From: Candidatus Hermodarchaeota archaeon
GTDB lineage: Archaea; Asgardarchaeota; Hermodarchaeia; Hermodarchaeales; Hermodarchaeaceae
Reading direction: 5' to 3'
DNA length: 30,225 bases
NCBI GenBank assembly: GCA_016839805.1
Contig: JAEOTO010000048.1
Span: 1 to 30,225 of the forward strand
Positions within the stretch are counted from its first letter, which is position 1. Each line of letters starts with the position of its first letter. A program made the position numbers and the translations under genes. The notes beneath the pieces are model-generated. The model saw only the letters and a program-made list of their open reading frames with translations. It was not told the origin of the DNA and did no database searches. This document shows positions 13,712-17,647 of the stretch, one piece after another.

Positions 13712-14596
13712 TCATAGTCCATTTTTGATTTGTCGTAAGTACTCCTTAATACGAGAATGAGTGCGAGCCTCTCGTTTAGACAACCCTGGATTATGTTGAG
13801 ACCAGTATTTTGTGGCTAAATCAACAATAATTCGATGCGTTCCAGAACCGTATTGGAGGGCACGCTTAGAAGCATTAACAAATCGGGGAGGTATTCCCAA
13901 TTCATACGCTAGTTCACGAAGAAGCCGTTTTCTAACAACCCCTTGTGAAGACTTGGAAAGTTTGCACGGAAAGGGAAGTTGATGAGAGAATTCTACAAGG
14001 GCACCATTGAGATAAGGAGTAGCAAGATTGATTCCAAAATGATGAACTACCGCCGTTTGAGAAGGAAGAATTATCTCACGAAGCTTCACAAGATCTTTTT
14101 CCATTTCTGTTAAGCTTGCTCGCTCTCCTAATTGAAGGAATTGCTGTTCATGACGAGCATATCCCCCGAACAGTTCATCGGCGCCTTGCCCAGTGAATAA
14201 AGTAGTGATATTAAACTGCTTTGCACATTCTGTTGCAAAAAACAGTGGAATAGCCAACTCAACTTGTAGCACATCAACCACATTGATGATAGAAAGTATT
14301 TCAGATAATTTTTCCTTTACCTCATCGCCTGTGAAGAAGCGGATGGTGAGAGGAAGCTTCAGAAACATGGCTGACTCTCGGGCAAGAATGATGTCTTTCG
14401 CTGATTCGACACCTGTGACAAAGAGTGGAATAGGTTCGGAATGGATATTGGAGAGTAGCGTTGCTAGTATACTACTATCTAATCCACCAGAAAAAAGGAG
14501 ACCAATGGTATCTGTAGACTTGTATGAAGAAGATAGAGCATTAGCGAGTAAAGCTCTTAATTGCTGAGATAGCATCTCCAAAGTTCTGCTTTTCAT
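13712..14596 (-). CDS. Asparagine synthase C-terminal (ATP pyrophosphatase) domain protein lacking the glutaminase domain
   Basis: PP-loop LFSGGLDSS, TGQGADELFGGY, PYL, KRLLRE and KRALQYGSG. No N-terminal Ntn Cys domain. Confidence 0.85.
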   Translation of the reverse strand: MKSRTLEMLSQQLRALLANALSSSYKSTDTIGLLFSGGLDSSILATLLSNIHSEPIPLFVTGVESAKDIILARESAMFLKLPLTIRFFTGDEVKEKLSEILSIINVVDVLQVELAIPLFFATECAKQFNITTLFTGQGADELFGGYARHEQQFLQLGERASLTEMEKDLVKLREIILPSQTAVVHHFGINLATPYLNGALVEFSHQLPFPCKLSKSSQGVVRKRLLRELAYELGIPPRFVNASKRALQYGSGTHRIIVDLATKYWSQHNPGLSKREARTHSRIKEYLRQIKNGL

Positions 14597-14634
14597 TGTA
14601 ACGCTCGCCTGTGCAAGATACAGATATCGGCAGG

Positions 14635-14643
14635 TTTATTTGC
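14635..14643 (+). promoter_or_regulatory. Putative TATA box for the C/D sRNA
   Basis: TTTATTT lies about 25-30 nt upstream of the predicted sRNA 5' end, which is archaeal promoter spacing. Confidence 0.4.
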
Positions 14644-14667
14644 ATCGATTGGCTGAAAATCCTCTGG

Positions 14668-14743
14668 TCGCTCTCACGCGATGACAGGAAGGCATTTGTG
14701 TGACCGCGTCAGCGGGATGAACTATCATAGTTACCTTGAGCGA
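14668..14743 (+). ncRNA. Dual-guide box C/D sRNA targeting LSU (23S) rRNA H69 and the 1935-1944 region
   Basis: Terminal stem TCGC/GCGA. Box C GCGATGA 14678-84, D' GTGA 14700-03, internal hairpin CCGC-GTCA-GCGG, C' GGGATGA 14714-20, box D TTGA 14736-39. The D guide TCATAGTTACC is complementary to GGUAACUAUGA. The D' guide AAGGCATTTG is complementary to CAAAUGCCUU. Confidence 0.85.
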
Positions 14744-14858
14744 ACGAGCGGCTAAATTGAATAATCGGTTCGCGCGCTAGTTATCCAGACGAACATACCC
14801 CAACTTACTTAGCCATTAACGCAACTTGATCGTATAATCTGGAATGTGAGGAGTTTTT

Positions 14859-14966
14859 GTACTCTTTAGTGATGAGACTTGTGAGAGTACGCTCTATTGA
14901 ACGTAGGTGGCGTGTGATATCCTTCGATGAGAGGAAATCCCCAAATCAAAAACTAACTCTGAAGAA
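14859..14966 (+). ncRNA. Putative second K-turn/box C/D-like RNA
   Basis: Perfect box C GTGATGA 14869-75, GTGA at 14881 and 14914, C'-like TCGATGA 14924-30, box D CTGA 14959-62, stem GTACTC/GAGTAC, and TATAAT about 25 nt upstream. No convincing target identified. Confidence 0.45.
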
Positions 14967-15048
14967 GAATTTGTGAATAAATCAGCACCGACTTAAAATA
15001 GGATTTTTATGGAATGACGTGAAATGGTGTAGGAGGCGGGTTCTTATC

Positions 15049-15315
15049 GTGGTCTGCGTGGTTTATTCTAGTAATAGCTGCCCTAGATGCGAGATTCTAA
15101 AGCAGCACCTGCGTGACCACAATATTGAGCATACGGTGCGAATGATAGAGGAACCGGATGCACAAGTGGATGCCCTCATGCTCAGCATCTATAGTACACC
15201 CGCATTGGTTATTGGCAAAAACGTACTTCGACAAAACAATCTATTCATCAATAATTGTGTTGATGAGGAAACTCTTGCATTATTCTTGAGGGTTAACGGA
15301 CATGGCTCGACGTAG
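15049..15315 (+). CDS. Glutaredoxin-like (NrdH-type) redoxin
   Basis: VYSSNSCPRC active site and cis-Pro motif STPAL. GTG at 15049 follows AGGAGG. Overlaps the nrdD start. Confidence 0.88.
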   Translation: MVCVVYSSNSCPRCEILKQHLRDHNIEHTVRMIEEPDAQVDALMLSIYSTPALVIGKNVLRQNNLFINNCVDEETLALFLRVNGHGST

Positions 15316-17647
15316 GAGGAGGCCAAATAGCAGAGCACGAAAAACTGTCCCTCTAGATCGATGGATTCAAGCGGTTCGCAAAGAAGAAGCTGGTATGCCA
15401 ATGGTGCGTACCAGTGACGCGTTAATCCGTAGTTGGAATCGTCAACGAATCGTAGATGCACTTGTTCGCGAAACGATGTTGGTACAAGAGCTTTTCAAAA
15501 TTCCCTCGATGACCGCAAAAGAAGCAAGAGATGTAGCAGAGAAAGTCGAAAAACGCATCCAACAATTGGAACTTCCATTTGTAAGCGCCCCACTCATTCG
15601 TGAGATCCAGAACCAAATCCTTCTCGAGAAGGCGAAAAAGGACCCAAGATTCGCTGTCTATCGTAATGCCTTAACCCGTGTTGGTGTCCCGATGTGGGAC
15701 TTCAGCCATATTATCGGTGGAAATGGGTATGAAGCTCAAGAGAACGCGAACATGCAACCAAATCCCGAAACAATCCACAAAAAAGTTGCAGATCGCCTTT
15801 GTAAAGAAGCCTATCTACTAACGCTTCCACCTGAAATTGCTGATGCACACCTCGTAGGGGATATTCATATCCACGATCTCGAATATTTTGGAACCCGACC
15901 TTTCTGTGCTGATTACGATGCACGGTATTTCTTCAAATATGGATTGATGTGTGATGGACTTGGTGAAAGGACGGCAGTTGCGAAGCCAGCGTCTTATCCT
16001 ACGGTGGCTATCTTGCACCTCATCAAAGTGTTGGCAGCCGGACAGACTAACTGCGCTGGAGGTCAAGGACTCTTCAATTTTAATGTATTCTTGGCGCCAT
16101 TCCTCCGCGGAAAAACTCCACGAGAGATTGAACAATTTGCTCAAACGCTCCTCTTCGAAGCTAACGAGACTTACGTCTCTCGAGGTGGACAACTAGTCTT
16201 CTCCAGTATACAACTCGAAGCTGGGATTCCAAAAATCTGGCGTGATGCCCCTATCGTCTACCGAGGAAAAGTTGGTCCAGACACTTACGGTGATTATGAA
16301 GACGAAGCCCACACCTTCATGAAAGCGCTTCTTGAATGTTACTTGGAGGGTGATGCCTGGGGTAAAATGTTCAGTTTTCCCAAACCCGAAATCCGCCTTC
16401 GCCGTGACTACTTGACAAAAAGTGAATATGATGAGGTTATGTACCTAGCCTCTAAACTCTCCGCGAAATTCGGCACTAGTTATTACGATAATGTCATTCC
16501 ACCTTGGCGCGGCGAAGATGGCGTAGATTGCTATCAATGTTGTGCTTTCCGATTGGCTGAAGATTTGAATGATGAAGAGTTGATGAGCAAGGTTATGTTT
16601 GAGGATGGAGCTCATTTTGCTATGGGTGGTCTTCAAGTAGTTACGATAAATTTACCACGACTGGCATATCTGGCGAATGGTGACGATAATATATTACTAG
16701 AACGGCTTCGCATCCAAATGGAGTTAGCAAAGCGGGTATTGTTGACAAAACGACGATTTATGGAACGACAGATGAAGAATGGAATGTTACCGTTTCTAAT
16801 GCAGCAGCCGAAGTGGAATGGTTCTGAAGCGCCACCATTGTTTGATATTATGAATATGTCACCGGTTTTTGGTTTCGTTGGTATTAATGAAATGGTGCAA
16901 TACCATACTGGTATTCAATTGCATGAGAGCAAGGAATCAGTACGGTTCGGATTACGCATATTAGCAGAAATGGAACGAATTAGATCAGAGTACACCAAAG
17001 AGACAGGTCTTCCCTTCGCTGTCGCACGGACACCTGCTGAATCGTGTTCGACACGACTGGCAATTCTGGATCTTCTTCATTATAATGATGCAGCTACCTC
17101 TGTTGTCAAAGGAGATATTTCGAATTGGCAACACAAACTGGAATCAGCAGGACGAACAGCTGTACCTGCGTATTATACGAATGGGTTTATGGTGAGCTAT
17201 GATGCCCGGATTTCATTAGCTCAAAAAATCGCAATTGAAGAGAAGGCCTTTCCATTACTTTCTGGTGGGAACATTTTCCATGTATTTCTCGGCGAAGAAG
17301 CACCAGATACTGAAGCATTACATAAACTCAACAGACGGATTGCCTTGAACACACAATTAGGCTATTATAGTTACACTCGGGACTTATCTGTGTGCAAACA
17401 ATGCCATTACACAGCAGGTGGCCTAATAGAAGTATGCCCACGCTGTAATCACAATGATATTGACTGGTTTAGCCGCATTACTGGTTACTACCAAAATGTT
17501 TCCGGGTGGAATGCTGGCAAACGAGAAGAACTAAAACGCCGACATCGTCAAGTTACGGCAACCTCATGGACTCCTCCTACTGAAGCACCTTCACTAGTTC
17601 GTCCCCGACTACTGCGAAGTGCCAATGGAATACAATCGCCTCAATAA
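15302..17647 (+). CDS. nrdD: Anaerobic (class III) ribonucleoside-triphosphate reductase with an N-terminal ATP cone
   Basis: ATP cone (VRTSD..WNRQRIVDAL..SAPLIRE), ENAN, AHLVGDIHIHDL, FSFPKP, finger loop QCCAFRL, VVTINLPRLA, TPAES, YYTNG, Zn site CKQC/CPRC and glycyl-radical motif RITGYY. Confidence 0.96.
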   Translation: MARRRRRPNSRARKTVPLDRWIQAVRKEEAGMPMVRTSDALIRSWNRQRIVDALVRETMLVQELFKIPSMTAKEARDVAEKVEKRIQQLELPFVSAPLIREIQNQILLEKAKKDPRFAVYRNALTRVGVPMWDFSHIIGGNGYEAQENANMQPNPETIHKKVADRLCKEAYLLTLPPEIADAHLVGDIHIHDLEYFGTRPFCADYDARYFFKYGLMCDGLGERTAVAKPASYPTVAILHLIKVLAAGQTNCAGGQGLFNFNVFLAPFLRGKTPREIEQFAQTLLFEANETYVSRGGQLVFSSIQLEAGIPKIWRDAPIVYRGKVGPDTYGDYEDEAHTFMKALLECYLEGDAWGKMFSFPKPEIRLRRDYLTKSEYDEVMYLASKLSAKFGTSYYDNVIPPWRGEDGVDCYQCCAFRLAEDLNDEELMSKVMFEDGAHFAMGGLQVVTINLPRLAYLANGDDNILLERLRIQMELAKRVLLTKRRFMERQMKNGMLPFLMQQPKWNGSEAPPLFDIMNMSPVFGFVGINEMVQYHTGIQLHESKESVRFGLRILAEMERIRSEYTKETGLPFAVARTPAESCSTRLAILDLLHYNDAATSVVKGDISNWQHKLESAGRTAVPAYYTNGFMVSYDARISLAQKIAIEEKAFPLLSGGNIFHVFLGEEAPDTEALHKLNRRIALNTQLGYYSYTRDLSVCKQCHYTAGGLIEVCPRCNHNDIDWFSRITGYYQNVSGWNAGKREELKRRHRQVTATSWTPPTEAPSLVRPRLLRSANGIQSPQ

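Follow-up and report, generated by a model that had tools for sequence, protein, structure and literature searches.

A predicted dual-guide box C/D sRNA of Hermodarchaeia directed at helices 69 and 71 of 23S rRNA

Guides for helices 69 and 71 in other organisms

Helices 68, 69 and 71 (H68, H69, H71) of the large-subunit rRNA are hotspots of methylation in archaea, with sites packed densely around A1912 (PMC4644070), and about 45% of Pyrobaculum sRNAs aim both of their guides within 100 nt (PMC6009581). Two adenosines in this region are of particular concern here. In S. acidocaldarius, A2179 (A1913 in E. coli numbering) is the predicted target of Sac-sR113 and A2204 (A1938) that of Sac-sR125; in I. 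hospitalis the corresponding predictions are IHOsR91 for A2179 and IHOsR109 for A2204, and all four RNAs were detected by RNA-seq (Dennis 2015, BMC Genomics 16:632, PMC4644070). Yeast makes Am2256 with snR63, Am2280/2281 with snR13 and Gm2288 with snR75 (PMC5199042).

The locus described here occupies positions 14666-14753 on the plus strand of a window, by which we mean the whole 30,225-nt stretch of DNA that was analysed, from a Hermodarchaeia (Asgard) MAG of 2.31 Mb in 50 contigs that is 86.7% complete. We read it as an independently transcribed dual-guide box C/D sRNA gene, and put the probability of this explanation as a whole, predicted methylation function included, at roughly 0.85. What we have in hand is the anatomy of the RNA, its conservation, its complementarity to the rRNA of relatives and the presence of the protein machinery.

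With IHOsR91 it has in common the order C, H71 guide, D', internal segment, C', H69-loop guide, D, as well as a D guide in identical register on GUAAC, with N+5 at A2179, the equivalent of E. coli A1913. The H71 arm sets the two apart: the D' guide of IHOsR91, UAACUCGGCAAGC, aims at G2211 (G1945), 7 nt downstream of A1938, whereas the N+5 position of the Hermodarchaeial D' guide is A1938 in H71. In addition, IHOsR91 belongs to a crenarchaeal host, and its boxes, stems and flanks are not alignable with those of our sRNA. The H71 arm is instead found in Sac-sR125 and IHOsR109, which carry the AAGGCAUUUG guide with U at position 1 and in the same register, targeting A2204 (A1938); there, however, it is the D guide, and its partner is directed at G2172, on the 5' strand of H69. 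Sac-sR113 resembles our sRNA in its D guide, CUCAGAGUUACU, which lies in the same register on the A1913 equivalent, but its D' guide is without a predicted rRNA target.

Yeast snR63 and snR13 act on the same rRNA nucleotides (numbering offset 343, 25-nt spacing), and the statement of the initial annotation that Am2256 and Am2281 come from separate snoRNAs agrees with the literature (PMC5199042). Unlike the Hermodarchaeial locus, which is without a match to any Rfam covariance model, these are two separate snoRNAs; function alone is shared between them and the sRNA, and descent is not shown. The human counterparts of snR63 and snR13 we take to be SNORD46 and SNORD15, respectively. When membership of snR63/SNORD46 or snR13/SNORD15 was judged by the Rfam models, at gathering score or at E <= 10, the locus fell into neither family, and only the target positions coincide.

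Anatomy and conservation of the Hermodarchaeial sRNA

The sRNA sits in a 422-nt gap between divergent genes in which there is no ORF of 40 aa or longer. This ORF-free setting, the C-D'-C'-D layout and the terminal and internal stems, all of which had been proposed initially, are found in the sequence, and the features of the locus and its surroundings are as follows.

13712-14596, leftward: Asn-synthase-like (PP-loop) gene, left border of the gap
14635-14641, plus strand: TATA-like element TTTATTT; the terminal stem begins about 25-31 nt further downstream
14666-14679, plus strand: 5' strand of the terminal stem, composed of GGUCGCUC (14666-73), a UCA internal loop and CGC (14677-79); partner 14740-14753
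14680-14687, plus strand: GAU bulge of the C/D K-turn (14680-82) and box C AUGACAG (14681-87), from the sequence
14688-14699, plus strand: D' spacer of 12 nt; guide AAGGCAUUUG (14689-14698) against CAAAUGCCUU in H71 of 23S rRNA
14700-14703, plus strand: box D' GUGA; NUGA in all loci, with G, C or A as first base
14704-14715, plus strand: internal hairpin CCGC-GUCA-GCGG, serving the C'/D' K-turn as its C-stem; fully paired (100%) across 16 sequences, loop variable
14716-14723, plus strand: GAU bulge of the C'/D' K-turn (14716-18) and box C' AUGAACU (14717-23); GGGAUGA invariant
14724-14735, plus strand: D spacer of 12 nt; guide UCAUAGUUAC (14725-14734) against GUAACUAUGA in the H69 loop of 23S rRNA
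14736-14739, plus strand: box D UUGA, from the alignment; pairs with positions 5-6 of box C
14740-14753, plus strand: 3' strand of the terminal stem, composed of GCG, an AAC internal loop and GAGCGGCU (14746-53), from covariation and pairing
15019-15315, rightward: glutaredoxin-like gene (grx), right border of the gap
15302-17647, rightward: nrdD, after the grx-like gene

We suggest a promoter role for TTTATTT because its spacing matches the usual archaeal TATA-to-start distance. The TTTAT core is kept in most of the 17 family loci, its flanks vary in the alignment, and it would fit an archaeal TATA box serving an independent transcript. The suspicion that standard scans might miss this RNA proved well founded: no Rfam family matches anywhere in the window at gathering score, and at E <= 10 the region 14400-15100 yields two weak matches only, both away from the sRNA.

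Other elements of the gap deserve a brief description. A block of about 90 nt (14921-15012, CCUUCGAUGAGAGGAAAUCCCCAAAUCAAAAACUAAC...CCGACUUAAAAUAGGAUUUUUAUGG), upstream of grx-nrdD, is strongly conserved in 17/17 family loci. In several relatives its GAUGA has become GAAGA, and because of this loss a C/D RNA is improbable here; the block may contain the promoter/operator or a leader element of the anaerobic ribonucleotide reductase operon. A CGCGCGC/GCGCGCGC run at 14771-14777, about 20 nt past the 3' stem of the sRNA, is conserved at 14/14 loci of the genus but missing from the sister genus. Finally, a GUGAUGA hairpin with a GUGA partner (14861-14888), which has a weak Rfam match to snoU83B (E = 2), was considered as a K-turn RNA and rejected, its box being lost in the 97%-identical nearest relative.

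How the boxes are framed matters for judging whether the RNA is canonical. In the initial annotation the boxes C and C' had been read as GCGAUGA and GGGAUGA, which leaves spacers of 15 nt. While its boxes D' (GUGA) and D (UUGA) stand unchanged, its boxes C and C' are 3 nt out of frame: had they been correct, bulge nucleotides would fall inside conserved Watson-Crick stems, and position 1 of D' would face an invariant G despite its own variation between G, C and A. Shifting both C and C' by 3 nt gives 12-nt spacers with duplexes at positions 2-11, the canonical archaeal geometry. The predicted methylation sites are independent of this choice, because boxes D and D' are the same in both frames.

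With the boxes so shifted, CGC at 14677-79 and GCG at 14740-42 form the C-stem of the C/D K-turn, and beyond the bulge follow the sheared pairs G14683.A14739 and A14684.G14738 and then C14685.U14737 and A14686-U14736. The C'/D' K-turn is closed by the 4-bp hairpin (GCGG 14712-15 with CCGC 14704-07), with sheared pairs G14719.A14703 and A14720.G14702 followed by A14721-U14701 and C14722-G14700. Read from the sequence, each is a canonical K-turn, in which a Watson-Crick stem is followed by a GAU bulge and by sheared G.A pairs in tandem. What defines an archaeal C/D RNA is present: a C/D K-turn, a full C'/D' K-turn and two 12-nt spacers. The terminal stem is about 14 bp long and extends to GGUCGCUC with GAGCGGCU. 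Boxes C and C' keep only the RUGA of RUGAUGA, and box D is UUGA (consensus CUGA); the deviating positions of boxes C and D pair and covary. Within the family GA alone is constant in box D, which occurs as UUGA, UAGA, AAGA, UGGA and CGGA. Folded without protein, the RNA has an unremarkable minimum free energy (z = -0.99), as is expected of a guide that is scaffolded by protein.

Many C/D sRNAs in other Asgard families (L118-L143, L086-L093) likewise place a hairpin between boxes D' and C' and form stem-GAU-GA K-turns. Their spacers, too, have an apparent length of 15 nt if the box is taken to be xxGAUGA and of 12 nt in the K-turn frame.

Beyond the host, the sRNA occurs in 16 of the 18 other genomes of the family (13/14 in the genus, 3/4 in the sister genus); the two genomes lacking it have a completeness of 81-83%. 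Its neighbouring genes are the same in every case. Across all 17 family loci the 10-nt guide cores of both arms are invariant, GAUGA is likewise invariant in the alignment, and little or no change is seen in the CCGC/GCGG hairpin or in the GA of box D. Variation falls in the loop of that hairpin, at the first position of the spacers and in the flanks. In one same-family genome (G017) a 2-nt insertion precedes box D, as a result of which the N+5 site would move to U1911.

Pairing is conserved along with sequence. Paired cells make up 89% of the alignment in the terminal helix and 91.5% in the terminal plus internal stems, where controls with slid partners give 35-44%; for the whole structure in the corrected frame they make up 88.7%, and such controls give 30-47%. 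Changes in the terminal stem are mostly one-sided G-U switches (G-U/G-C/A-U), and its covariation taken alone is not significant, with 75/500 shuffles reaching the score. Elsewhere both partners change: position 1 of D' and position 6 of C' occur as GC 12 times and as AU, CG and GU once each, and position 6 of box C with position 1 of box D as AU 12 times, GU twice and GC once. The covariation score of the whole structure, 0.192, compares with 0.163 +/- 0.011 for shuffles and is reached by 2/500 of them, in a set of a few closely related sequences with double changes in 2-4 pairs only. The corrected box frame is thus one that covariation in the alignment supports.

Two loci of the sister genus (L015 and L016) show a truncated, decayed tandem copy of the sRNA about 118 nt upstream of the intact one. 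Both of its guides are nearly intact, but box C or C', box D and the 3' stem are gone, and the copy extends into the putative promoter of its intact neighbour. We see in it evidence of a recent duplication of the sRNA gene followed by decay.

Predicted targets in 23S rRNA and the insertions between them

No 23S rRNA is assembled in the contigs of the host MAG, and for this reason targets were sought in the 23S rRNA of relatives, namely same-genus G006 (two copies) and G008 and same-family G017. The initial annotation had called for pairing with the host's own 23S; the gene is unassembled, but the relatives' rRNA carries both segments. All of these genes read GGGAGUAACUAUGACUCU...GCCAAAUGCCUUGUCGG, with GGGAGUAACUAUGACUCUCUUAAGGUAGCCAAAUGCCUUGUCGG as the target region in G017. 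In G006, G008 and G017 alike, the D guide UCAUAGUUAC is a perfect 10-nt complement of GUAACUAUGA in the loop of H69, and the D' guide AAGGCAUUUG a perfect 10-nt complement of CAAAUGCCUU in H71. Both duplexes fill positions 2-11 counted from D or D', with a mismatch at position 1 in each. For D' this is the length claimed initially; for D, 11 nt had been claimed, and the eleventh pair is absent because the rRNA has GAGUAAC rather than GGUAAC.

At position 5, the second A in GUAAC lies opposite U14731 and the third A in CAAAU opposite U14695, giving each 10-bp duplex a Watson-Crick U-A pair at N+5 with the relatives' 23S, the host's being unassembled. E. coli A1912 corresponds to A2178 in the alignment of Dennis et al. 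(PMC4644070). A distance of 25 nt separates the two adenosines in the relatives' rRNA, in line with the spacing of about 25 nt that had been anticipated, and the same distance separates 2179 from 2204 in the Dennis numbering and 2256 from 2281 in yeast. Since the Dennis numbering, the guide registers shared with described sRNAs and this spacing all agree, we identify the sites as the equivalents of A1913 and A1938, as originally proposed for 14731 and 14695, respectively.

Might such matches arise by chance? The probability that a single 10-mer matches somewhere in the roughly 3 kb of 23S rRNA is near 0.003, and here there are two, 25 nt apart and in the right register. A genome-wide search with the regular expression GAUGA-spacer-NUGA-spacer-GAUGA-spacer-NNGA returned 62 C/D-like candidates, and the sRNA alone has both 10-mers matching 23S rRNA. 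On this evidence from sequence we consider chance matching excluded. The proposal of a genuine dual-guide C/D sRNA is upheld by layout, 23S matches and family conservation together. A second sRNA directed at H69-H71, such as a G1945 guide, was sought in the 86.7%-complete host MAG and not found.

Two further C/D-like candidates were noticed in the host genome (G000). One, on the minus strand of contig C44 near 33610, has a GGCGGC/GCCGCC terminal stem and one guide that matches 23S rRNA of the phylum; another, on the minus strand of C29 near 26214, has a D' guide that matches same-family 23S rRNA.

The divergent intergenic region holds other conserved blocks, and one may ask whether the element is instead a cis-acting, L7Ae-binding or otherwise regulatory part of the divergent promoter region of the Asn-synthase-like and grx-nrdD genes, or a silent relic, with its rRNA matches incidental. 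Two invariant 10-mers would then happen to match adjacent rRNA sites in exact N+5 geometry, and the element has a conserved TATA-like box of its own. Moreover, the same guides recur in unrelated gene contexts in other families. The decayed tandem copy of the sister genus shows what relaxed selection looks like, and the intact copy is unlike it. We find this explanation scarcely credible.

The gene products that a guide RNA would need are encoded in the host genome: contig C22 has neighbouring genes for Nop5 and fibrillarin, and C9 has the gene for L7Ae. We suggest that L7Ae would bind both K-turns and that a Nop5 dimer with two fibrillarins would assemble on them. Each 12-nt spacer would form a 10-bp duplex with nascent 23S rRNA, and fibrillarin would 2'-O-methylate the nucleotide opposite spacer position 5, that is, the A1913 equivalent in the H69 loop through the D guide and the A1938 equivalent in H71 through the D' guide. 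Most likely, then, an L7Ae-Nop5-fibrillarin RNP uses the two guides to 2'-O-methylate the two adenosines; that the gene is transcribed, that the RNP assembles and that the methyl groups are added we infer. Public sequencing runs listed for the locus are of sediment DNA, and none is of RNA. By gripping both strands simultaneously, the RNP would probably also aid folding of the intersubunit-bridge region.

A peculiarity of the 23S genes bears on this last point. Insertions of 322 nt and 696 nt lie, in same-genus 23S genes, exactly between the two target sites in H69 and H71 (loci L029, on the minus strand of G006:C17, and L030, on G006:C60), and an ORF for a LAGLIDADG endonuclease lies within the 696-nt insertion (L030:576-1052, E = 1e-18). 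At the same UCUUAA/GGUAGCC site, insertions of 30 nt and 49 nt occur in two other Asgard 23S genes; the loci with insertions also include L022 and L025. It is tempting to conclude from both sets of insertions that the sRNA is mainly a chaperone for the folding or splicing of pre-23S rRNA, clamping the exons around the intron site, and that methylation is secondary or absent; such a role has been proposed for close double guides in the literature (PMC4644070, PMC6009581). Several observations argue against this model, however. G017 carries the sRNA and its 23S is without an insertion at that place, and double guides are found in many lineages irrespective of introns. Furthermore, both arms have what catalysis needs, with U and A in a Watson-Crick pair at position 5 and spacers of the canonical 12 nt. 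We regard a primarily chaperoning sRNA as very unlikely.

A weaker version keeps methylation and adds to it: an old H69/H71 double guide was retargeted so as to flank a recurrent 23S intron site, and the RNP doubles as an exon clamp. It is conceivable that such a clamp would align the splice junction or protect the spliced H69-H71 region. The role is not required, because G017 has the sRNA with no insertion there, and we think it improbable on present evidence; if true, it would link rRNA modification guides to the biology of archaeal rRNA introns.

Distribution of the two guides across Asgard archaea and beyond

The exact pairing of A1913 and A1938 guides in one sRNA is found in 17/400 genomes of the phylum, all of them in this one family (f1, Hermodarchaeia). 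A scan for the dual-guide pattern across 185,579 species, with one genome for each, returned 16 loci. All are in Asgard MAGs: two of these are untitled archaeal MAGs, two have the titles Odin and Thor, and the titles of the rest are Hermodarchaeota, Hermodarchaeum yapensis or Promethearchaeota.

The individual guides are far more widely distributed. The A1913 guide is present in 100/400 genomes and 36/85 genera (13 in a control with the guide read backward), and it tracks the local sequence of H69, being UUAUAGUUAC where the rRNA has CUAUAA and CAUAGUUAG where it has CUAAC. The A1938 guide stands beside box elements in 50/400 genomes from at least 12 families (backward-read control, 1). It is their combination that differs from family to family. 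Double guides of the families f12, f8, f17, f18, f19 and f4 resemble our sRNA in having the D guide on A1913 and the D' guide in H71; they differ from it in the D' register and in gene neighbourhood. In f12, f8, f17, f18 and f19 the partner of the A1913 arm is an H71 guide in or near the G1945 register, which in f12 and f8 matches the family's own 23S rRNA, and in f4 it is a G1940 guide. Elsewhere the A1913 and A1938 guides lie on different contigs or at distant loci (f2, f9, f18, f25, f29 and f31, at least six families in all), and in f9 and f28/29 the partners of the A1938 arm are H69 guides of other registers. None of the sRNAs of other families with the same guides lies beside AsnB-like or NrdD genes, and because the neighbouring genes differ we make no claim of positional orthology beyond the family.

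These data allow us to evaluate the most far-reaching suggestion of the initial annotation, namely that a single archaeal sRNA specifying both A1913 and A1938 is the ancestor of the functions now split between snR63/SNORD46 and snR13/SNORD15. The suggestion has some appeal: yeast does methylate both positions through separate snoRNAs (PMC5199042), the host is an Asgard archaeon, and each guide is widespread in the phylum. Yet the pairing itself is confined to f1, at 17/400, and to the 16 Asgard MAG loci recovered from all those species. Five other families use a partner in or near the G1945 register, as IHOsR91 does with G1945, one uses G1940, and the families that hold the two guides at separate loci also speak against it, as does the lack of any match to Rfam snoRNA models. 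Neither are the sites themselves an Asgard-eukaryote peculiarity. Sulfolobus and Ignicoccus target both, which places their origin before Asgard, and describing the methylations as eukaryote-type does not hold, both having been predicted in Thermoproteota already (PMC4644070). We therefore think it very improbable that the sRNA is the ancestral form, in an arrangement known from one Asgard family among 400 genomes while others re-pair the guides or keep them separate.

What, then, is its likely history? The target sites and the H69/H71 double-guide scaffold are, judging by their distribution, old and widespread. Because other Asgard families employ G1945 or G1940 partners or separate loci, the A1913+A1938 combination looks like a Hermodarchaeial rearrangement, derived rather than ancestral. 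The sRNA would be an old archaeal H69/H71 double guide in a lineage-specific form, with its A1913 arm retained and its H71 arm set 7 nt upstream of the common G1945 register. It had been foreseen that novelty would decrease if the guide were widespread outside Asgard, and in part this is so: both sites and the two-armed layout are already catalogued in other archaea, whereas the exact pair, among the 185,579 species scanned, is confined to Asgard MAGs. The sRNA belongs to a known family of archaeal guides, and what is new is the lineage-specific pairing of its arms.

For Hermodarchaeia, a lineage without catalogued guide RNAs, the locus adds a well-supported C/D sRNA that had not been annotated. 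It also cautions that Asgard sRNAs can seem non-consensus merely because their boxes are read in the wrong frame, when in the K-turn frame the last three box positions are free to covary. Methylation sites shared by Asgard archaea and eukaryotes are poor evidence of a special link between them where, as here, Sulfolobus and Ignicoccus target the same ones. In practical terms, the findings can inform annotation and the choice of RiboMeth-seq targets in Asgard cultures. More broadly, guides to A1913 and A1938 are common in Asgard archaea but shuffled between sRNAs, a picture of guides being re-paired on a conserved scaffold.
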